Source of the DNA: a virus
Lineage: Duplodnaviria; Heunggongvirae; Uroviricota; Caudoviricetes
Length of the DNA stretch: 36,654 nt
Virus record (IMG/VR): IMGVR_UViG_2609459834_000011
Location: 1-36,654 of that record
Strand: one strand, 5' to 3'
Shown piece by piece: positions 2,396-21,397 of this stretch. The translations under genes and the position numbers were made by a program. Position 1 is the stretch's first letter, and each line of letters opens with the position of its first letter. Under the pieces are notes generated by a model, which worked only from the letters and a program-made list of their open reading frames with translations, made no database searches and was not told where the DNA came from.

Positions 2396-3153
2396 TCAGC
2401 CTCCGTCTCTGCGACATTGACAGGTTCGGCGTTGTCGACAGCAAGACTCATGTCATACATGCGTCGTTTCTCAACTGCGCCGATCACCTGTTTCTCTTCG
2501 GCGCTCAGCGCCACCCAGAACTCCTGATACTTAACGGTTCCAAGGCGCGCGGCGGACTCACCTTTTGCGATCAGTTCCGGGCGGCGGCTATCTGATTCAT
2601 GGCCCGCATGAACCTCTGCCGTTGTTCCTTCAATTACTCGCTCTGCCTCGTCCTGGTCGAAGATGCCAGCGAAACCAAAGGCCAGACGCGCGCACTGGAT
2701 CAGCGTCTTGTGGCGAAGCATGCGGGTAGGGTGGGACTGCCATGGCTGAGTGTTGCGTTTGCACTCTCCCATGTACTCGGTGACGATGGTCGGGTGCTTA
2801 CGGTCTTTGCGGTAAATCTTGCAGGTACACGCGCCTTCCTCCTTGTCGTAAGAGAATTCCATGCCGTCAAACTGAGGATGCTCGTTGATAATGCGAGCCC
2901 ATCCATCAACGCCGACGACCGGGACAATCCCGCCTTTATCTGGGAATGCGTAAATCTCTTTGGTCCATGGGTTCAGGCCGTACTGGTTGGCGACGATCAA
3001 CAGGGCTGTAAACTGCTCGTCCGTGACGTTGCCACCTTTGAACGCTGTATTCTTCAGCGTATTCATCAGGTCTGTACCGGCATCCATGCCGAGGCGTGCG
3101 GCCAGTTTCCCGGCCATGGTGGAAAGTGCAGTACTCATTGTTAAATCCCTCAA
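2392..3153 (-). CDS. recT: RecT-family single-strand annealing protein
   Basis: 253 aa; RecT-like sequence and classical RecT plus YqaJ-exonuclease gene pairing. Confidence 0.85.
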   Translation of the reverse strand: MRDLTMSTALSTMAGKLAARLGMDAGTDLMNTLKNTAFKGGNVTDEQFTALLIVANQYGLNPWTKEIYAFPDKGGIVPVVGVDGWARIINEHPQFDGMEFSYDKEEGACTCKIYRKDRKHPTIVTEYMGECKRNTQPWQSHPTRMLRHKTLIQCARLAFGFAGIFDQDEAERVIEGTTAEVHAGHESDSRRPELIAKGESAARLGTVKYQEFWVALSAEEKQVIGAVEKRRMYDMSLAVDNAEPVNVAETEAE

Positions 3154-12975: not shown

Positions 12976-13252
12976 AACCTACCGCAGCAAGAAGTGGCTC
13001 GCCGCAGTCGGCCAGATTGAGCAATGCGTCCTTTGCGGAGCGTGGGGCGTACAGGTAGCACACCGCAATGAAGGTAAGGGAATTGGCATGAAGACAGACG
13101 ACTGCGCCACCGCCGCTATCTGTGTCACCTGCCATTCAGAGATTGATAACGGGAAGGGGCTTAGCCGTGACGAGCGCCGCCAGTTAATGGATCGCGCCAT
13201 CGTCCTGACCATTATTCAGATTGCCCGTCGTGGCTTGGTGGTGCCTGCATGA
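12968..13252 (+). CDS. YbcO-like (DUF1364-type) Cys-rich protein
   Basis: 94 aa from ATG at 12968; CVLCGAWG...VAHR...CVTCHSEID pattern resembles E. coli YbcO as recalled; sits before a RusA-like gene as ybcO does in prophage DLP12. Confidence 0.55.
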
Positions 13253-13608
13253 AAATCTACGACATCACACCAATCGGCAAGCCTCGCATGACCCGCGCCG
13301 ACAAATGGAAAACACGGCCTGCGGTCATGCGTTACCGCGCATTCTGCGATGAAGCACGTCTGCGCAAAATCAATCTCCCTGAGTCCGGCGCGCATATCAC
13401 CTTCGTTATGCCAATGCCCCCGAGTTGGAGCAAAAAGAAGCGGGAACAGCTCAACGGCAAGCCGCACCAGTCAAAACCAGACTGCGACAACATGCTTAAA
13501 GCACTGATGGATGCCCTGTTTGATGATGATTCCAGTGTCTGGGATTGTCGCATTACAAAGCTATGGGGCGAGAAAGGCCAGATCATCATTCGGGAGAACG
13601 GACAATGA
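13249..13608 (+). CDS. rusA: RusA-like Holliday junction resolvase
   Basis: 119 aa; KPDCDNMLKALMDALFDDD matches the RusA catalytic DxDNxxKAxxDAL...D signature (E. coli RusA [22 protein letters not shown], as recalled). Confidence 0.65.
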   Translation: MKIYDITPIGKPRMTRADKWKTRPAVMRYRAFCDEARLRKINLPESGAHITFVMPMPPSWSKKKREQLNGKPHQSKPDCDNMLKALMDALFDDDSSVWDCRITKLWGEKGQIIIRENGQ

Positions 13609-14288
13609 CACGCAACGACATTAACAATTACCAGAAAGCGTCTGTTGAGCGTACCAACCCGCAAAACGCCTGGGTGACGCTAGCAGCAGCTCCACGCAGA
13701 TCTTACCTGGGGAAATACCGCCGACTTACACCATCGCAAAGCCGTTGGGTTCGTTCGTTGCTGAACCACTGGGGCGGCATGTACGGTGGCAGTGGAACAG
13801 AGCACCTTTCTGGTGGCGGTGGTATGTGGTCAATGATATTGACCGGCTGGACTGGCGAGCAGCAGGAGCGGATCGCTACCGTGCTGTCTGGTCTGCGTAA
13901 AATTGGCTATACCGGCGATGCGTTGTTTGAGCAGGCGAAAGCCATCATCTGGCCGAAGAAATCACTTTCTGACCTGATCGGCAACGCCGGGGATCAAGAG
14001 GAAGCTGCATTCATGGAGGCTATCATCCTGAAGTCCTTCAAGCCGGGGAATCCCGTGTATGAGATAGGGAAGGACTATTACACCTGGAGGAAAACCATTA
14101 ATGACATGGCACGGTGGATGCAATATTACTACGCGCCGTTTCTGACCGAAAAGCAATGTATTGACCGCGTGCGCTGGTGTATTGAGTTGTTTAATTCTGC
14201 TGTCTTCTTCACGTTAAAAGATGAATTTGGCTTCGAAAATGCAAAAACTTGCGAAAAAGACTTGAAAACGAGTTTTGAAACTGCATAA
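13605..14288 (+). CDS. Putative late-gene antiterminator (Q-like), assigned mainly by position
   Basis: 227 aa from ATG at 13605 (ATGA overlap with the RusA-like gene); last gene of the nin-like operon, directly upstream of a terminator, tRNA and the lysis cassette. No lambda-Q zinc-finger motif seen. Confidence 0.45.
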   Translation: MTRNDINNYQKASVERTNPQNAWVTLAAAPRRSYLGKYRRLTPSQSRWVRSLLNHWGGMYGGSGTEHLSGGGGMWSMILTGWTGEQQERIATVLSGLRKIGYTGDALFEQAKAIIWPKKSLSDLIGNAGDQEEAAFMEAIILKSFKPGNPVYEIGKDYYTWRKTINDMARWMQYYYAPFLTEKQCIDRVRWCIELFNSAVFFTLKDEFGFENAKTCEKDLKTSFETA

Positions 14289-14372
14289 TTCAGATATGCT
14301 CGGACGTCAAAGGCGAAAGAGCTTACCCACCAGCGGAGATGCCTTGCGCGGAGCGGTGTGAACCACATTTAA

Positions 14373-14399
14373 GCCCTTGCAGAAATGCAGGGGCTTTTT
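14373..14399 (+). terminator. Intrinsic terminator (tR'-like) downstream of the Q-like gene
   Basis: GCCCTTGCA-GAAA-TGCAGGGGC (9-bp stem with one G-U pair, GNRA loop) followed by TTTTT. Confidence 0.6.
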
Positions 14400-14406
14400 G
14401 CATTCA

Positions 14407-14481
14407 GGGTCAGAAGCACAGAGGTTGTGCGATCGGCTGTTAACCGATTGGTCGAAGGTTCGAATCCTTCCTGTCCCGCCA
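14407..14481 (+). tRNA. tRNA-like gene, anticodon GTT (Asn)
   Basis: 75 nt folding as a cloverleaf: acceptor GGGTCAG/CTGTCCC (one U-U mismatch at 4:69), D-arm GCAC/GTGC, anticodon stem ATCGG/CCGAT with loop CTGTTAA, T-arm GAAGG-TTCGAAT-CCTTC, discriminator G, encoded CCA. Confidence 0.7.
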
Positions 14482-14531
14482 AATACCTACCAGGACCATA
14501 AGAGCAAAAGCTCAACGCACTACCCTCTATT

Positions 14532-14555
14532 GCCCACCGCGCCGTGGGCTTTTTT
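14532..14555 (+). terminator. Intrinsic terminator upstream of the lysis cassette
   Basis: GCCCAC-CGCGCC-GTGGGC followed by TTTTTT. Confidence 0.6.
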
Positions 14556-14663
14556 ATTGCAGGCCGCAGATATCATTTTCAGATGCCATGTAGCAATCAG
14601 AGTCTGACGGCCTTTCCCCTACAAACACACACAGCACCATCCGGAAAATCGGAGGTGAGGCCT

Positions 14664-14987
14664 ATGAAAATGCCATACAAACAAGATTTCATCGCTGCGC
14701 TACTTGCCGCCAAGGAGCAGGGTATTGGTGCAATGCTGGCTTTTATCATGGCGTATCTGCGTGGTCGCTATAACGGCGGCGCGGTAACAAAAACGCTAAT
14801 TGATGCGCTGATGTGCGCGATGATTGCCTGGTTCGTTCGTGACCTTCTGGACTTTATCGGCCTGAGCAGCAACCTCGCCTACATAGCCAGCGTCTTTATT
14901 GGATACATCGGCACCGATTCGATCGGCAATCTGATTAAAAAACTTGCAGCAAAAAAGGCGGGAGTTGACGATGCAAACCAGTCCTGA
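14664..14987 (+). CDS. S: Class I holin, lambda S-like, with dual-start MKM motif
   Basis: 107 aa; [39 protein letters not shown]...[25 protein letters not shown] is near-identical in pattern to lambda S as recalled; SD GGAGGTGAGG upstream. Confidence 0.9.
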
Positions 14988-15420
14988 CGGAATTGCTCTG
15001 ATAAAAAAATTTGAAGGTTGTCGACTGACTGCTTACCCCGACCCCGGAACGGGAGATGCGCCGTGGACCATCGGCTATGGCTGGACCCATCCGGTTGACG
15101 GAAAGCCAGTAAAGCGCGGTATGACTATCGACCAGCAAACCGCTGACAGGCTTCTGAAAACAGGGCTTGTTGGTTATGAGAATGACGTGCTGAAAGTTGT
15201 CAGGGTGAAGCTGACACAAGGCCAGTTCGACGCACTGGTGTCGTTCGCTTACAACGTTGGGTCGCGTGCTCTTTCCACATCTACACTGCTGAAAAAGCTG
15301 AATGCTGGCGATATAAAAGGCGCGGCAGATGAATTTCTGCGCTGGAATAAATCAGGCGGAAAGGTGATGCCGGGGCTCACGAATCGCCGCAAGGCAGAGC
15401 GAGCTCTGTTCCTGTCATGA
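14971..15420 (+). CDS. R: Endolysin (phage lysozyme, GH24-like)
   Basis: 149 aa from ATG at 14971 (SD GGAG); [22 protein letters not shown]...TIGYGWT lysozyme motif; start overlaps the holin 3' end. Confidence 0.9.
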
Positions 15421-15884
15421 TTAGCGCACTGGTTAAGCGTTACTGGCTGCAGTTGCTGGTGCTGGCGTTAATCGGCGCACTGGCTTTCTTCGTGAACCAC
15501 TACCGCGACAACGCCATCACTTACAGAGACCAGCGCGATAAGGCCACTGAGAAACTCCTCCTGGCGACCGCCACCATTAAAGACATGCAGACCCGCCAGC
15601 GTGATGTCGCTGCACTGGATGCCAAATACACCGGAGAACTGGCTGATGCGAAAGAAACCATTGAGCGTCTGCATAGCGATGTCATTGCTGGCCGTAAGCG
15701 CCTGCAAGTCGCCGCCACCTGTGCAAAGTCAACGACCGGAGCCAGCAGCATGGGCGATGGAGAAAGCCCAAGACTTACAGCAGATGCTGAACTCAATTAT
15801 TACCGTCTCCGAAGTGGAATCGACAAGATAACCGCGCAGGTTAACTACCTGCAGGAATACATCAGGACGCAATGCCTGAAATGA
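15417..15884 (+). CDS. Rz: Rz-like inner-membrane spanin
   Basis: 155 aa; N-terminal TM helix then coiled-coil periplasmic domain; ATGA overlap with endolysin; contains the embedded Rz1 frame. Confidence 0.8.
15646..15831 (+). CDS. Rz1: Rz1-like outer-membrane lipoprotein spanin, embedded in the +1 frame of Rz
   Basis: 61 aa from ATG 15646: [20 protein letters not shown] (signal peptide plus lipobox Cys) followed by a Pro-rich mature region. Confidence 0.75.
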
Positions 15885-15920
15885 TCGGGCGATGAAAACC
15901 AAAAAAAACAGGAGCAATAC

Positions 15921-16196
15921 ATGACTAAGCTTTATCACCGCATCTCAACTTTTCTCTCTGGTTGCTGGGCGTTTATCACGTCTATTTCGTTCGCCATCTT
16001 TAGTTTCGGTAGCACAGCGTGCTCGCTTAGTCGGGGTCTGTGGCGTGCTATTTCAGCACTAGCGCCGAAATTTTTACCTGAAAAGGCTGTTTGGCGAATT
16101 GTAGAGCGAATGTGTAGTGAGAGCGTTCGCGAGAAGATTAACGTATTTGGACGTCATCCTCGAAATACAGGCGCATTGTGCAGTCCGTTACTGTAG
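15921..16196 (+). CDS. Hypothetical protein with hydrophobic N-terminal region
   Basis: 91 aa; SD AGGAG upstream; first ORF of the accessory cluster between lysis and terminase. Confidence 0.45.
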   Translation: MTKLYHRISTFLSGCWAFITSISFAIFSFGSTACSLSRGLWRAISALAPKFLPEKAVWRIVERMCSESVREKINVFGRHPRNTGALCSPLL

Positions 16197-16197
16197 T

Positions 16198-16234
16198 CAT
16201 TACAAAGCCCATCTACGGGTGGGCTTGATAATGG
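16198..16234 (+). repeat. Hairpin-containing repeat, copy 1 (CATTACAAAGCCC...GGGCTTGATAATGG)
   Basis: Begins 2 nt after the stop of the 91-aa ORF; stem AAGCCCA/TGGGCTT; related in sequence and context to the copy at 16502-16539. Confidence 0.45.
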
Positions 16235-16315
16235 TTATCCCCGAAAGCGGATAAGGTAATGAAAATCCCTTCTCAGGGATAAATTTGAAAAATTATCTAA
16301 TGTGGAGGCCGCAGG

Positions 16316-16501
16316 ATGTCCAGGCTAAACGTTGAAGTTACCCCACCAGACAGCGAGGCGCTGAACGGGATTTTTGCAGAGATTGAGCGCAAATATGCGC
16401 GTCAGCCGCTGACGCCAAAAGTAATTGATGAAATGCAACGCGAAGCGACGCGCCTTGTACGGCGAATGATAACCACAAAGGTTACGTTCGTCCGGGACTG
16501 A
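16316..16501 (+). CDS. Hypothetical small protein (61 aa), bracketed by two hairpin repeats
   Basis: MSRLNVEVTPPDSEALNGIFAEIERKYARQPLTPKVIDEMQREATRLVRRMITTKVTFVRD; SD GGAGG upstream. Confidence 0.45.
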   Translation: MSRLNVEVTPPDSEALNGIFAEIERKYARQPLTPKVIDEMQREATRLVRRMITTKVTFVRD

Positions 16502-16539
16502 CATTACAGAAGCCCTTCACTGAGGGGCTTCGATAATGG
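16502..16539 (+). repeat. Hairpin-containing repeat, copy 2 (CATTACAGAAGCCC...GGGGCTTCGATAATGG)
   Basis: Starts immediately after the stop of the 61-aa ORF; stem GAAGCCC/GGGCTTC with 8-9 nt loop; shares CATTACA-stem-GATAATGG flanks with copy 1. Confidence 0.45.
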
Positions 16540-16555
16540 AGCACTGGGATTATTC

Positions 16556-17176
16556 ATGAACAGACCACACCCACCAGCGCATTTTACGATGCCACCTGAC
16601 CCGAAGCCTTACATCAGCATAATGCCCGCCATTGACGTTGGCGAGTGGCTGAATCAGCACATCCTGAGCGATGAGGGTGACCTCTACAACCCTGACCACC
16701 AGCATTTGCTTGAAGCGGATCTGTGCTTTCTCTGGGCGTCGAACGCTTTCGAGAAGAAAGGGCGTTCCGTGCTGGGGCAGGCGGAAGAAGTGGCAATGCG
16801 GGCTGGAGGCTGGCAGAAAGCGCGGATGGAGCAGCAGATGTATGAATGGTTCGGCAGGGTGCCGCAGTTCATCATCACGCTGGCCGCCGATTACTGCTCG
16901 CAATGTTCCGATCTGGAATTCTGCGCGCTGATAGAGCACGAGCTTTATCACATCTGCCAGGCGACAGATGAGTTTGGCGCGCCGAAGTTCACGCAAGAGG
17001 GGCTGCCAAAGCTGAAGCTACGCGGCCACGATGTGGAAGAGTTTGTTGGCGTGGTTCGCCGTTACGGTGCGAGCCGTGATGTGCAGGAAATGATTGATGC
17101 GGCGAATCAGCCTGCGGAGGTTGCTCATCTCGATATTGCCAGAGCGTGCGGGACGTGCATGCTGCGACTGGCTTAA
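16556..17176 (+). CDS. Putative zinc metallopeptidase-like protein (HExxH motif)
   Basis: 206 aa; ALIEHELYHICQA contains HExxH; several Cys near the C-terminus; located between lysis and packaging genes. Confidence 0.5.
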   Translation: MNRPHPPAHFTMPPDPKPYISIMPAIDVGEWLNQHILSDEGDLYNPDHQHLLEADLCFLWASNAFEKKGRSVLGQAEEVAMRAGGWQKARMEQQMYEWFGRVPQFIITLAADYCSQCSDLEFCALIEHELYHICQATDEFGAPKFTQEGLPKLKLRGHDVEEFVGVVRRYGASRDVQEMIDAANQPAEVAHLDIARACGTCMLRLA

Positions 17177-17207
17177 ATACTGGACTGTATAAGACGAATG
17201 GTGATTT

Positions 17208-17681
17208 ATGGCTGCATTAAAACCTGATGTGAAAGCCTTCATCATTCAGTCGCTTGCGTGCTATGACACGCCATCGCAGGTGGTCGAGGCTGTCCAAAAA
17301 GAATTCGGGATCAGGATCACCCGCCAGCAGGCTGAATCTCACGACCCCACGAAGGCCAGCGGTAAGACGCTCGCCAAAAAGTGGATCGAGATGTTCCACG
17401 CGACGCGCGAACGGTTCCTGACCGAAACCAGCGACATTCCGATAGCGAACAAATCCTATCGCCTCCGCGTGCTTGACCGCATGGCAACCAAAACCGAGGG
17501 GATGAAAAACTTCTCCCTGACGGCGCAGCTTATCGAACAGGCCGCGAAAGAGGTTGGCGACGCTTACACCAATAAGCTGAAGGTTGAGAGCACTGGCAAG
17601 GATGGCGGCCCGATCAAGACCGAGACGACCAACCTCACCGCAGATCAGGCCGCAGAGATTTACCGCAAGATGATGGGGTGA
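17208..17681 (+). CDS. Putative terminase small subunit
   Basis: 157 aa immediately upstream of and overlapping the terminase large subunit; assignment mainly positional. Confidence 0.5.
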
Positions 17682-17683
17682 TC

Positions 17684-19306
17684 ATGCCTCTCCCGTTTGA
17701 ATTCGATTTCAGAAACCCTGATTACCAGATGGTTTTTGAATGGCGGATGGAGCGCTTACAGCGCATTCGCCAGAACCCTGAAATGCTGCCAGCGCTAAAG
17801 CAGTTTTATCGCACCAACCCGGCACAGTTCATCATCGACTGGGGTATGACTACTGACCCGCGTAACATCGATTATGGCCTGCCGGTCACCATCCCTTTTC
17901 TGCTGTTCCCGAAACAGGAAGAGTGGATTCACTGGATCATGGAGCGGCGCGAACGACTGGAGAACGGCATCACCGAAAAGAGCCGCGAAATGGGGCTCAG
18001 TTGGACCGCGATCGGGCTGGCCTGCTCGCTTTGTCTCTTCAACAAAGAAATGGTTATCGGTTTCGGCTCCCGTAAAGAGGAATACGTCGACAGCACCGGT
18101 GACCCGAAGGCGCTGTTCTGGAAGGCGCGAAAGTTCGTGGAAACACTGCCCATCGAGTTTCGTGGTTCGTGGGACGAGAAGAAGCATGCGCCGTATATGC
18201 GCGTTGAGTTTCCAGATACTGGCGCGGTTATCAAAGGCGAGGCTGGCGACAATATCGGACGTGGTGACCGTACCACGCTCTACCTGGTGGATGAAGCTGC
18301 ATTCCTCCAGCGTCCTCTGTTGATTGATGCGGCGCTGTCGCAAACCACCCGTTGCCGTATTGACCTGAGCTCGGTTAATGGCATGGCGAACCCGTTCGCG
18401 CAGAAGCGCCACGGCGGAAAGATACCAGTATTCACGTTCCACTGGCGAGATGACCCGCGCAAGGATGAAGAGTGGTATCGCAGGGAGTGCGAGAAAATCG
18501 ACAATCCGGTGGTGGTGGCGCAGGAACTTGACCTGAACTACAGCGCATCTGCGGAAGGCGTCCTGATCCCGTCCGACTGGGTACAGGCTGCCGTCGACGC
18601 GCATATCAAACTTGGTATTCAGCCAACGGGCAAGCGACTGGGCGCGATGGACGTCGCCGACGAAGGCCGGGACAAAAATGCCTTTTCGACCCGTCACGGC
18701 TTCCTTCTGGAGAACGTGCGTGAATGGTCCGGCGTTGGCAGCGACATTTACCAGTCTGTTGAGAAGGTCTTCGGCTTTTGCGAACAGGACAACCTCGAAG
18801 AATTTCGCTTCGACGAGGACGGCCTGGGCGCTGGCGTTCGCGGCGATGCACGCGCCATCAACGAACTGCGTAACGCTGCGCGCCGACCGTCAATACTCGC
18901 CACACCGTTTCGCGGTAGCGGCGCGGTGTTTGATCCGGACGACGAAGCGGTGCGCGGCGACAACGGACAGGCCGCCCGCCTGAACAAGGACTTCTTTGCT
19001 AACGCCAAGGCCCAGAGCTGGTGGTGGCTACGCAAGCTTTTCCAGAACACCTATCGCGCCGTGGTTGAGGGCATGGCCTACAACCCGGACGAAATTATCT
19101 CAATCAGCAGCGCCATGGCGAGCAAAGACAAACTCATCATCGAGCTGTCGCAACCGACCTATTCCATTAACGGCGTGGGGAAAATCGTTGTTGATAAACA
19201 GCCTGACGGCACCAAGTCGCCGAACCTCGCCGACTCGGTGATGATCAGCTACGCGCCAATGAATTCAGCCCTGAACATCTGGGAGCTGCTAGGGAGACAG
19301 GCCTGA
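17684..19306 (+). CDS. Terminase large subunit
   Basis: About 540 aa; ATPase (Walker B-like LYLVDEAAF) and nuclease regions in terminase order; the ORF track begins at an overlapping GTG (17678), ATG at 17684 chosen. Confidence 0.9.
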
Positions 19307-20775
19307 TGGCACGAAACAAGCAATCCTCTCAGCGAACGGCACAGGCCACCGCTGACGGCTACGAGAACTTCGTCGCCCGCGTTGGGATGCAGACGCCTAA
19401 CCAGCATTCAGCATCGACCTACCGGGCGAACTTCCCCAGCCGCAACCGCATGCTGGTGGAATGGTCATATCGCGGTTCGTGGGTTATCGGTGAAGCGGTC
19501 GACGCTATCCCGGACGATATGACCCGAAAGGGCATTCGCATCACTTCGGAGATTGACGCCAAAGACCGTGGCACCCTCGAAGCGCAACTGGATGAGTTGC
19601 AGATCTGGGATGCGCTGAACGACGTGCTGAAATGGTCGCGCCTCTACGGCGGCGCGGTCGGCTTCATCATGATCGAGGGGCAAGCACCAATGACCCCGCT
19701 GCGACTCGAAACCATTGGCGAGGGCAAGTTTAAGGGCATTCTCCCGCTCGACCGCTGGATGATTAACCCGGTGCTGACACGCCGCATTAAAGAGATGGGG
19801 CCGGACCTCGGCAAGCCTGAGTTTTACGACGTGGTGACCACCGCAACGGGCATTCCGGCCTGGCGCATCCATCACAGCCGCCTGATCCGCTTTGATGGCG
19901 TCACGCTGCCATTCCAGCAGAAGATGACCGAAAACGAATGGGGAATGTCGGTTGTAGAGCGTATCTGGGATCGGCTTACTGCGTTCGATAGCGCCACTGT
20001 CGGCGCGGCGCAGCTGGTCTATAAAGCGCATCTGCGTACCTATAGCGTGGAGAAGTTGCGCGAGCTTATCGCGCTTGGAGGCCCGGCGTTCGAAGCGTTG
20101 CTGAAGAACATCAACCTGATCCGCCAGTTCCAGAGCAATGAAGGTATGACGCTCATGGACTCGCGGGATAAGTTCGAAACCCACCAGTACAGCTTTAGTG
20201 GTCTGGATGACATTCTTTCGCAGTTTGCTGAGCAGATCAGCGGTGCCGTTGGTATCCCGCTGGTACGCCTGTTCGGTCAATCCCCGAAAGGCTTCTCTAC
20301 TGGTGATGCAGACCTCGCCAACTATTACGACCGGGTGAGCTCATTGCAGGAGCGCCGCTTACGGCTGCCGATGCGCCGGATACTGGACATTATGCACCGC
20401 TCGGAACTCGGAAAGCCGCTGCCGGACGATTTCACGTTTGAGTTTAACCCGCTATGGCAAATGTCAGACGTTGACCGATCAACGGTGGCCGTAAACACCA
20501 CCAACGCGATCAGTACCGCGCTGGGCGACGGATTGATGACGCGTAAGGCGGCGATGACCGACCTGCGCGAAAACTCTGACGTCACCGGCATCGGGGCATC
20601 CATTACCGACGAGGATATCGAGAATGCCGAAGACGAAGCGCCGCCAGGCATCGGCGAACTTGGCGACAAACCGCCAGAGCCGCCAGGCGGAGATCCGATA
20701 TCGAACGAGCCTACGGCAGATAGCGCGGGCGGTCGGGGATATCGTAAATGGTCGCTACGATGGTTCAAACGATAG
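19306..20775 (+). CDS. Portal protein
   Basis: 489 aa directly after terminase (TGATG overlap); acidic C-terminal tail; position and size typical of a portal. Confidence 0.8.
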   Translation: MARNKQSSQRTAQATADGYENFVARVGMQTPNQHSASTYRANFPSRNRMLVEWSYRGSWVIGEAVDAIPDDMTRKGIRITSEIDAKDRGTLEAQLDELQIWDALNDVLKWSRLYGGAVGFIMIEGQAPMTPLRLETIGEGKFKGILPLDRWMINPVLTRRIKEMGPDLGKPEFYDVVTTATGIPAWRIHHSRLIRFDGVTLPFQQKMTENEWGMSVVERIWDRLTAFDSATVGAAQLVYKAHLRTYSVEKLRELIALGGPAFEALLKNINLIRQFQSNEGMTLMDSRDKFETHQYSFSGLDDILSQFAEQISGAVGIPLVRLFGQSPKGFSTGDADLANYYDRVSSLQERRLRLPMRRILDIMHRSELGKPLPDDFTFEFNPLWQMSDVDRSTVAVNTTNAISTALGDGLMTRKAAMTDLRENSDVTGIGASITDEDIENAEDEAPPGIGELGDKPPEPPGGDPISNEPTADSAGGRGYRKWSLRWFKR

Positions 20776-21397
20776 CGTCACCGAAATAATGGATGCGCTG
20801 GAGCGCTACAGCGAAATCATCACCCCCTGGGCGACTAAGGTTGCTGAGAGCTTCACCGCCGACATTGCGCGCCAGAATGAAAAGCAGTGGCGTCAGCACA
20901 GCCGGAACATCAGCGCAGAACTACGCAACATGGTCGACCGCGCCCCGGTAGGCCAGGTGATGAAATCCATCGTCGCCGAGCAAATTAAGTACATCAAATC
21001 TCTGCCTCTTGAGGCCGCCGATCGGGTGTATGACATTCAGAACAAGGCCATCGAGGCTGTAGTAACTGGTGGCCGCGCTGAGCCATTCGCGAAAGAGATA
21101 GCTGCTTCCGGTGACGTGTCACGCTCACGAGCGAACCTTATCGCCCGGACTGAGCTTGGGCGCGCAACCGGTGCACTGGATCAGGCGCGTGCGCTGTCAA
21201 TCGGCTCGAATGGTTATATATGGCGTACAGCCGAAGATGGCGACGTCCGGCATTCTCATCGGGAGATGGAAGGGAAGTTTGTCGAATGGGGCCGACCTCC
21301 AACGCTTGACGGCATGACCGGTCACGCTGGCGAGCTCCCGAACTGCCGCTGTTACAAAGAAATCGTCTTCCCCAACCCTCATTCTTATCTCGCCTGA
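20624..21397 (+). CDS. Head morphogenesis protein (Mu F / SPP1 gp7-like minor head protein)
   Basis: 257 aa; follows the portal as minor head proteins usually do; start overlaps the portal 3' end by about 150 nt in another frame (alternative in-frame ATG at 20789). Confidence 0.7.
   Translation: MPKTKRRQASANLATNRQSRQAEIRYRTSLRQIARAVGDIVNGRYDGSNDSVTEIMDALERYSEIITPWATKVAESFTADIARQNEKQWRQHSRNISAELRNMVDRAPVGQVMKSIVAEQIKYIKSLPLEAADRVYDIQNKAIEAVVTGGRAEPFAKEIAASGDVSRSRANLIARTELGRATGALDQARALSIGSNGYIWRTAEDGDVRHSHREMEGKFVEWGRPPTLDGMTGHAGELPNCRCYKEIVFPNPHSYLA

Follow-up and report, generated by a model that had tools for sequence, protein, structure and literature searches.

Lambdoid phages are the textbook example of genome mosaicism, yet few of the junctions between their modules have known conserved sequences. 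The lysis-packaging junction examined here, in a lambda-like prophage sequence of 36,654 nucleotides (the whole of which we call the window), raises the question of why two related hairpin-forming sequences should each stand immediately behind the stop codon of a small accessory gene. A sequence-only reading of this DNA had taken the two repeats either for the borders of a mini-cassette or for paired RNA structures, and had suggested that the genes around them could form a small toxin/immunity or anti-defence unit. We find that the segment is an ordinary mosaic accessory stretch of a lambdoid late operon, and that its punctuation is a real and widespread structured RNA element.

On the left, the lysis cassette ends with the Rz i-spanin gene (15417-15884, plus strand; Pfam PF03245, E = 3.8e-39), in which Rz1 is embedded (15601-15831). 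On the right lies the gene for a DUF2280 small terminase subunit (17208-17681, plus strand; Pfam PF10045, E = 8.7e-50). The interval between them holds three real genes, as the earlier reading had held, all on the plus strand: orf91 (15921-16196), orf61 (16316-16501) and orf206 (16556-17176), named for the number of amino acids that they encode. orf91 has an AGGAG 8 nt 5' of its ATG, and its product is predicted to contain one N-terminal transmembrane helix at about residues 11-29 (Kyte-Doolittle maximum of 1.69 in a 19-residue window). It matches PHROG 34701 (E = 7e-57), a family of unknown function, and has homologues of 90-91 amino acids in Enterobacteriaceae prophages (53 clusters, 55-99% identity); in phage HK140 it is likewise located after Rz. 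At 47.5% G+C, orf91 is somewhat AT-richer than orf61 (52.2%) and the window (52.8%). The orf61 product is predicted to adopt a beta-alpha-alpha-beta fold, for which comparison with known folds returned no informative match. Neither protein has an assigned function or a match in Pfam, NCBIfam or PADLOC. Viewed as morons, the two genes vary in presence among relatives, and neither a promoter nor a canonical terminator was found for them; the scan detected no promoter-like site upstream of either. orf91, encoding a membrane protein, and orf61 are genuine small cargo genes.

The 206-aa protein does contain the HExxH motif attributed to it (...CALIEHELYHICQ..., with the motif at residues 128-132), and it matches Pfam PF18894 (PhageMetallopep, 'putative phage metallopeptidase') over profile positions 2-134 of 134 with 146.2 bits against a cut-off of 23.7. 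The motif lies on the active-site helix of a zincin fold, and a third metal ligand is present as well. The fold is closest to those of the minigluzincins (jannalysin, selecase) and the SprT/Spartan/Wss1 proteases, at a sequence identity to the solved structures of only 11-16%, and a sequence search of the PDB gave no match. It differs from these proteases in having extra N- and C-terminal elements and a nearly invariant HxH...CxxC set (H48, H50, C198 and C201), which could bind a second metal. We regard the protein as a zincin-type, metalloprotease-like member of a known uncharacterised family; in the literature searched, PF18894 receives only passing mention and we found no experimental activity data. 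The PHROG 513 label of 'transposase' is supported by neither fold nor context.

The family is very large (3507 clusters) and is linked to one terminase type. A DUF2280 terminase gene follows orf206 in every examined prophage context with terminase genes, and an identical orf206 follows either orf61 or a gene of the Rha family. orf206 is the first gene of a conserved DUF2280-terminase module and lies outside the variable cassette. Three related DUF2280 modules (L014, L009 and L047) lack it, so that it does not qualify as a universal packaging factor, and the earlier reading is not refuted by the condition that it had set for this protein. That the 61-aa and HExxH proteins make up a toxin/immunity or anti-defence unit now appears highly improbable: the two genes are not co-inherited, orf206 travels with the terminase genes, orf61 offers no fold match to build on, and the sole PADLOC match was weak (a GlgB-annotated model, E = 0.013) and was taken as chance. 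orf206 is of more routine interest than the hairpins, which we consider in the remainder of this report.

Copy 1 of the hairpin (hairpin A, type I; CATTACAAAGCCCATCTACGGGTGGGCTTGATAATG) occupies 16198-16233 and starts 1 nt past the TAG of orf91, while copy 2 (type III; CATTACAGAAGCCCTTCACTGAGGGGCTTCGATAATG) occupies 16502-16538 and starts 0 nt past the TGA of orf61. The two are related elements of 36-37 nt; that they directly follow stop codons had been noticed from the sequence alone. The pattern that they share has exactly two occurrences in the 36.6-kb window and none in 100 dinucleotide-preserving shuffles, and a covariance model run with filters off identified these two copies only. Both lie on the plus strand, with scores of 29.3 bits for copy 1 (16.1 on the minus strand) and 66.8 bits for copy 2 (40.4 on the minus strand). 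The RNA folds show the same preference: -22.6 kcal/mol for copy 1 (z = -3.8) and -23.0 kcal/mol for copy 2 (z = -5.05), as compared to -16.1 and -18.4, respectively, on the minus strand. In copy 1, the outer helix (CAUUA/UAAUG) has 5 bp and by chance of context reaches 10 bp; beyond a 2x2 internal loop (CA/GA) comes an inner helix of 9 bp, capped by a UACG loop. In copy 2, the CA/GA loop again separates the two helices, of which the outer has 5 bp and the inner 10 bp, one of them a U.G pair, and the cap is an ACU triloop. The inner helix is G+C-rich in both, with 4-5 G-C pairs. A search of the whole window against Rfam 15 at the gathering score returned tRNA only, and a permissive E-value search of 15850-16620 returned chance-level matches only (E of at least 1.5).

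Both copies belong to a family with the consensus CAUUACA-N7-UUC-triloop-GAG-N7'-GAUAAUG, which folds into two helices on either side of a 2x2 CA/GA internal loop: the outer one is of 5 bp, and the inner one, of 10 bp, includes a conserved U.G pair. A scan in which the 7+7 stem positions were left unconstrained recovered 96 loci and 60 unique variants, giving 420 free cells. Pairing is retained in 408 of these cells (97%; 359 Watson-Crick and 49 G.U), and 12 are mismatched. Twenty distinct 37-mers have 98.3% of cells paired, with double changes at 6 of 15 pairs. Neither this level of pairing nor the covariation score was reached in any of 500 shuffles, and pairing in slid controls is 37-58%. 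Mismatches of the A.C or C.A type, which would be G.U pairs on the opposite strand, number only 2 as against the 49 sense-strand G.U pairs; therefore, selection acts on the sense-strand RNA. The sense strand is also the better fold in 87 of 91 variants (-17.2 versus -12.4 kcal/mol, p = 3e-16). The family thus shows compensatory base-pair changes together with strand-specific G.U pairs, as expected of a structured RNA, and of the two proposals made for the repeats it is the paired RNA structures that these data bear out. As G.T pairs are tolerated in single-stranded DNA hairpins, it may also be that the same strand has a role at the level of single-stranded DNA.

The variants were aligned as 37-mers only and by the covariance model. 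Part of the conservation of CAUUACA and GAUAAUG stems from the searches themselves, in which the outer motifs were fixed. Variants with divergent outer motifs do exist (UAUUGCA/GACAAUG and UUCUACA/GAUAGAG), and a Providencia member preserves the outer helix through compensatory changes. The internal loop is not essential, because eight perfectly palindromic variants close it.

Over 230 lambdoid phages and prophages from the Enterobacterales were found to carry a member of the family; they include P22-like, HK97-like and other lambdoid phages from many genera. At the approximately two-thirds of hairpin sites where neighbouring genes are recognisable, the hairpin is preceded by lysis genes and followed by terminase, HNH or orf206 genes, which share its strand, with two exceptions among about 200 sites. 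One of these (L209) has a lysozyme gene downstream of the hairpin; the other (L169) has a holin gene downstream on the opposite strand. At 68 of 98 sites, a stop codon lies 0-11 nt before the start of the hairpin. Copy number is low, with two copies in the window, both at the one junction, and one in the whole P22 genome, at 40311-40347 of NC_002371; this distribution is not that of ordinary genome-wide terminators. Copy 1, over about 36-41 nt, recurs as an isolated island of 97-100% identity in about 90 phage records, and its sequence is present in 387 of 5426 complete E. coli genomes (median of 1 per type I carrier). The hairpin is absent from the E. coli K-12 prophage DLP12. It is unannotated in the records of ST64T, HK140 and even the curated record of P22, where called CDSs, probably mis-called, run through it. 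The family is widespread and apparently unnamed: no earlier description was found in the literature searched, and Clark et al. (2001), writing on the 'boundary sequences' of HK620, may already mention the sequence. The prophage small RNA svsR (PMC12803456) was considered as a possible identity for the hairpin and rejected, as it maps to cI and is unrelated.

The junction was expected to be a variable cargo site, with a cassette present or absent in otherwise syntenic prophages, and this is what we observe: prophages with 94-99% identical flanks have a Rha-family gene in place of orf91 and orf61. In Omnitron/L129-type relatives, homology stops at the Rz stop codon and restarts exactly at position 16502, the first nucleotide of copy 2, and more generally homology among related phages starts or ends at hairpin edges. 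The left flanks of 237 sites fall into 101 clusters and the right flanks into 110, and 144 pairings of the two occur. Left and right flanks show equal linkage to the hairpin variant (AMI of 0.40 and 0.39), with no asymmetry that would assign the hairpin to the upstream module in preference to the downstream one, and one hairpin (L026) looks chimeric. These observations do not fit a repeat-bounded mini-cassette: the hairpins are members of a junction family present in hundreds of phages and linked equally to both flanks. The claim that the repeats flank orf61 holds in the window and fails in relatives L124, L126-L128 and L130, which carry orf61 with the downstream hairpin only; in L124, the orf61 segment has its left border away from a hairpin.

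From these sequence comparisons we infer, with a probability of roughly 0.55, that the hairpin is an intercistronic processing or stability element of the late mRNA that doubles as a recombination joint. It would be transcribed within the Q-antiterminated late mRNA and would act after transcription and not as a terminator, either by blocking 3'-5' exonucleases or by providing an RNase III-type site, cleavage of which would uncouple the lysis and accessory segment from the packaging and head segment. RNase III substrates are typically of about 20-22 bp, whereas the hairpin, with 15 bp and the 2x2 loop, is shorter. The invariant flanking and apical nucleotides may be recognised by a host or other common factor. 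Homologous recombination at the hairpin would swap the adjacent genes and so generate the orf91/orf61 and Rha alternatives; recombination is placed here because the hairpin is the sole conserved stretch, of about 37 nt, between otherwise unrelated cassettes.

Stable hairpins just 3' of a cistron in a polycistronic mRNA are well known from the REP elements of malE-malF, the RNase III sites of T7 and the sib/tI region of lambda. The architecture of the hairpin resembles that of T7 R1.1-type sites, which have an upper stem, an internal loop and a lower stem. It may also be likened to sib, in which the inner hairpin gains an outer helix only in read-through RNA. Unlike REP/BIME elements, the hairpin has no dispersed copies across the genome, and its sequence is presumably unrelated to the REP consensus. 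A more specific form of recognition, in which the hairpin is either a sib-like retroregulator or a single-strand recombination site that captures ORF-plus-hairpin cassettes, is conceivable and in our view unlikely. In the sib-like version, the outer helix would form only in Q-read-through RNA and create a nuclease site, by which upstream cargo would be switched between lysogenic and lytic states. If the recombination-site version were true, the lysis-packaging junction of lambdoid phages would amount to a cassette array like that of an integron but lacking the integron integrase.

Several other explanations have to be set against an mRNA processing or stability element. The hairpins could be terminators or insulators of moron-type cargo that stop RNA polymerase not modified by Q and are read through during lytic growth. 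Their position directly 3' of accessory-gene stop codons and their G+C-rich inner stem would suit this role, and P22-like late operons do hold intra-operon terminators of unknown role (phage L; PMC8022706). However, neither helix, inner or outer, is followed by a U-tract; the stem is succeeded by GAUAAUGG..., the flanks past the outer helix are variable and not T-rich, and a consensus scan that requires at least 5 T in 8 called neither copy. Nor do orf91 and orf61 have a promoter-like site before them, and termination has no need of a conserved outer helix and internal loop. We consider this role decidedly unlikely. About as unlikely is a purely DNA-level 'boundary sequence', kept for recombination between modules and without an RNA function. 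Such sequences are already a concept for lambdoid phages, in a passage of PMC3029335 that cites Susskind and Botstein (1978) and Clark et al. (2001) for 'boundary' or linker sequences at module junctions. The concept as given in that passage, of a short conserved sequence at the joints of exchangeable modules and a proposed focus of homologous recombination, matches the islands of near-identity between unrelated flanks, the breakpoints at hairpin edges, the free reassortment of left and right flanks and the equal linkage of the variant to either side. It operates at the level of DNA, however, whereas the hairpin conserves a sense-strand RNA structure with covariation. A linker needs identity and not structure, but the stem sequence varies widely while pairing is held at 97%; G.U pairs outnumber their A.C mirror images 49 to 2; and orientation to transcription is constant where neighbours are identifiable.

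The hairpin might instead govern the translation of flanking genes, by sequestering an AUG, by coupling or by blocking re-initiation. The last bases of its 3' arm, UAAUG, contain a stop and a start codon that overlap, and the outer helix has to be melted by a ribosome that terminates 0-11 nt before the hairpin. In copy 2, this AUG begins an ORF of 7 codons, the stop of which in turn shares bases with the start of orf206 (ATGA). Against this, the sequences behind the hairpin are unrelated across phages and the frames opened by the AUG are short and unconserved, and of 172 distinct right flanks only 56 have a detectable Shine-Dalgarno sequence with a start codon, the median distance past the hairpin being 33 nt. 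Translational control is thus very unlikely to be its main function. The least probable of these explanations, which we hardly credit, is a mobile or site-specific element, either an attC-like single-stranded DNA site or a MITE, through which a dedicated recombinase would move cassettes of an ORF and its hairpin. The likeness to integron attC sites is in the form: an imperfect palindrome directly after a stop codon, conserved 7-nt ends around a variable middle that covaries and keeps its structure, and tandem ORFs all in one orientation behind a strong promoter. But the ends are CATTACA...GATAATG and not the RYYYAAC...GTTRRRY of attC; the element keeps to a single genomic position with 1-2 copies per phage; no recombinase is linked to it in the gene orders read, and an IntI-type integrase is absent from the genes listed for related loci. 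The non-hairpin left border in L124 also argues against cassette movement of this kind.

A close parallel for exchange at such an element is provided by the PeSLs, or promoter-early stem-loops, of T4-type phages (Arbiol et al. 2010, PMC2839356; Comeau et al. 2014, PMC4122927), in which a strong sigma-70 promoter is joined to an efficiently terminating stem-loop and which are present in many copies per genome. PeSLs and the hairpin are alike in being short, conserved intergenic motifs with a stem-loop, set beside small non-essential ORFs of variable regions that recombination shuffles; like a PeSL, the hairpin flanks small variable ORFs and coincides with the breakpoints of insertions, deletions and replacements. 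The differences are that the hairpin has neither promoter nor U-tract, is present in 1-2 copies at one fixed junction and belongs to temperate lambdoid phages. No promoter-like site was found at or beside either copy, and the count for the region (3) is below the shuffle mean of 3.9. A promoter overlapping GATAAT or TTGATA was sought by eye and by scan and rejected for want of an acceptable -35/-10 pair, and an IHF site in TTGATA was rejected as the YAA element is absent at the correct spacing.

The hairpin represents a precisely defined, covarying 37-nt element at a very active lysis-packaging cargo site. Phages P22 and HK140 allow direct tests of whether late mRNA is processed or differentially stabilised at the hairpin. 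A further question is whether a functional RNA element is also the crossover point that moves cargo genes. In the window, copy 1 is followed by a secondary pair of hairpins of the UUAUCC...GGAUAA type (hairpin B; 16235-16282, plus strand), which lies in the spacer ahead of orf61. Its members, at 16235-16254 and 16265-16280/82, were identified from an inverted repeat (I5) and from the fold of 16190-16300. The same motif occurs 3' of the hairpin in P22 and L026, and in 16 of the 172 distinct right flanks.

Hairpin A, the junction stem-loop family of the form CAUUACA-N7-UUC-triloop-GAG-N7'-GAUAAUG, is a conserved, covarying, strand-specific and position-specific element that is no canonical terminator and that coincides with homology breakpoints. 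The window, a lambdoid prophage, carries two copies on the + strand: copy 1 (type I, 16198-16233), which starts 1 nt past the orf91 stop codon, and copy 2 (type III, 16502-16538), which starts 0 nt past that of orf61. Both repeats, and the three small + strand genes orf91 (15921-16196), orf61 (16316-16501) and orf206 (16556-17176), lie where the sequence-only reading had placed them. Upstream on the same strand are a tRNA-Asn (GTT; 14407-14481), which sits between the Q region and the holin gene, then the holin gene itself, the lysozyme gene (14944-15420) and Rz with embedded Rz1 (15417-15884); downstream follow the DUF2280 small terminase (17208-17681), large terminase (17678-19306) and portal (19306-20775) genes. 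Over 8 kb (13001-21000), the window is 100% identical to contig JNPE01000034.1 of GCA_000703505.1. A pattern common to both copies occurs twice in the window and in 0 of 100 shuffles, and an unfiltered covariance model built from relatives recovers the two copies as the only sites in 36.6 kb. As + strand RNA, copy 1 folds at -22.6 kcal/mol (z = -3.8) and copy 2 at -23.0 (z = -5.1), the - strand being clearly poorer. Neither copy is followed by a T-run or appears in the terminator scan list, and an Rfam search gave no family matching them. On either side of the tRNA-Asn is a terminator-like hairpin with a T-run (14371-14396 and 14532-14549); the former has the stem sequence AAGCCCTT...GGGGCTT in common with hairpin A, but a U-tract is present.

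Circularity in the pairing test was avoided by taking one genome per bacterial species and fixing the outer motifs and the apical UUC/GAG, which left 7+7 stem positions free. The 60 distinct variants have 420 free cells, of which 408 were paired (359 Watson-Crick and 49 G.U), and only 2 of the 12 mismatched cells were A.C or C.A, the type giving G.U on the opposite strand. For 20 distinct 37-mers, 98.3% of cells were paired, with changes on both sides in 6 of 15 pairs; pairing fell to 37-58% when the partner was slid by 1-3 columns, and none of 500 shuffles came up to the real sequences in either pairing or covariation score. Of 91 variants, 87 have the better fold on the sense strand (p = 3e-16). 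In the consensus, a 2x2 internal loop (CA opposite GA) separates a 5-bp outer helix from a 10-bp inner helix; the inner helix is capped by a triloop, and its third pair from that loop is a conserved U.G. A Providencia member keeps the outer helix via compensatory changes (UUCUA/UAGAG) and the CA/GA internal loop as well.

The family is widespread. Megablast of the region returned about 90 phage records, including the P22-like ST64T, L, ST160 and SPN9CC as well as HK140, HK544 and IME10, in which the match (97-100% identity) is confined to copy 1, some 36-41 nt, and neither flank shows homology; the site is unannotated in most of them. More than 100 additional sites came from a pattern scan of IMG/VR, and a covariance model search added more diverged members (e.g., UAUUGCAGAGACCAUUCAAUGAGUGGUCUCGACAAUG) and found many phages with two copies 158-815 nt apart, as in the window. 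Type I is present in 387 of 5,426 complete E. coli genomes (median one copy) and the exact copy-2 variant in 17. When one genome per bacterial species was scanned, 95 of 96 loci were in Enterobacterales (genera including Serratia, Pectobacterium, Yersinia, Erwinia, Rahnella, Pantoea, Kluyvera, Citrobacter and Enterobacter), the exception being an Advenella MAG. The 41.7-kb P22 genome has exactly one copy (40311-40347), downstream of rha and overlapped by the called 'orf25'. P22-like and HK140-like phages have either two copies 158-217 nt apart, with no consistently conserved ORF between them, or one after a conserved leader of about 100 nt. The segments compared (P22, 40200-40410; ST64T, 2506-2737; HK140, 2849-3079) might represent a processed non-coding RNA, and the annotated CDSs P22 orf25 and ST64Tp48 both cross a hairpin and are probably mis-called.

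Neighbours were recognisable at all but roughly a third of the sites, and there hairpin A lies between lysis genes on its 5' side and terminase, HNH or orf206 genes on its 3' side, all of which share its strand. This order is independent of the lysis cassette (Rz or DUF2570 spanins) and of the head module (P22-like, HK97-like with HNH, or DUF2280-type). Exceptions were found at 2 of 97 genome sites, one with a downstream lysozyme gene (L209) and one with a downstream holin gene encoded on the other strand (L169). An ORF of 40 codons or more ends 0-11 nt before the hairpin at 68 of 98 viral sites. Three Pectobacterium prophages (L155, L168 and L171) have it directly 3' of a secreted or lipoprotein-like cargo gene of 292-323 aa, not a small ORF; hence, the lysis-packaging junction also hosts larger morons.

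Homology breakpoints coincide with the hairpin. Up to the Rz stop codon, Citrobacter phage Omnitron and prophage L129 match the window at 94-99% identity; an unrelated Rha-family gene comes next, and identity picks up again precisely at 16502, where copy 2 starts. Strain TOK-001, the best match in E. coli, shows this Rha replacement too. Upstream of an identical orf206 protein, orf61 is found in six contexts and Rha in two. The flanks of 237 sites form 101 left and 110 right sequence clusters in 144 combinations, and linkage between hairpin variant and flank is only moderate and equal for left and right. One locus (L026, 415-451) has the hairpin GAAGCCCTTCACTGA|TGGGCTTTGATAATG, whose 5' arm resembles type III and whose 3' arm resembles type I, as in a chimera. 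It is followed by the sequences of a second stem-loop, hairpin B, that come after type I in the window. A crossover within the hairpin could have left this footprint. The window pair is therefore not a fixed cassette boundary, and relatives carry orf61 with the downstream hairpin alone. The sequence-only observation is confirmed, and its view of paired RNA structures at a cargo site is right in outline.

In lambdoid late operons, hairpin A appears to represent a structured RNA motif, hitherto undescribed, whose positions coincide with mosaic joints; its family is the part of this locus worth pursuing. We have only moderate confidence, on sequence grounds, in a functional role in the late transcript. 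The hairpin would act within the Q-antiterminated transcript as a processing or stability element, probably recognised by a common, likely host, factor, to which the conserved flanking and apical nucleotides point; its conservation would make it the preferred crossover point in cassette exchange. Typical RNase III substrates have a longer helix than hairpin A. The element could conceivably have a role as same-strand ssDNA, or fit a sib-like or attC-like reading. Of the analogues described so far, the nearest are T4-type phage PeSLs (PMC2839356) together with the 'boundary sequences' that, as cited in PMC3029335, have been proposed for lambdoid phages.

The toxin/immunity unit first suggested is unsupported. 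Defence-system models gave no meaningful match for orf91, orf61 or orf206. The first two are conserved small genes for which no recognisable function was found, orf61 having 31 homologue clusters and a predicted beta-alpha-alpha-beta arrangement and orf91 having 53 and one predicted transmembrane helix. The orf206 product is a PF18894 zincin-type metalloprotease-like protein. In every Escherichia-type and Providencia prophage context examined, its gene precedes those for DUF2280 TerS, TerL and the portal protein, also when the portal belongs to a different family. The gene is missing from related DUF2280 modules and so is a linked accessory of that terminase module. This link may be limited to the enterobacterial branch, as a 51%-identical PF18894 homologue on a short metagenome contig (L132, P0128) lies among small unknown genes with no terminase genes nearby. 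Conserved family residues include H48, H50, C198 and C201 in addition to HExxH and H158; these four may form a second metal site, of a structural kind, that links the N-terminal part to the C-terminal one. CSQC (residues 113-116) is not conserved in the family. The match of orf206 to PHROG 513 (E = 8e-97) brings the label 'transposase / integration and excision', which neither fold nor gene context backs.

Hairpin B (UUAUCCC-loop-GGGAUAA or GCGGAUAA) occurs twice on the + strand directly 3' of copy 1 (16235-16254 and 16265-16282), and each of these coincides with a 7-codon mini-ORF, MVIPESG (16231-16254) and MKIPSQG (16259-16282). The motif recurs 3' of hairpin A in P22 and, as two copies, in L026; among 172 distinct right flanks, 16 contain it.
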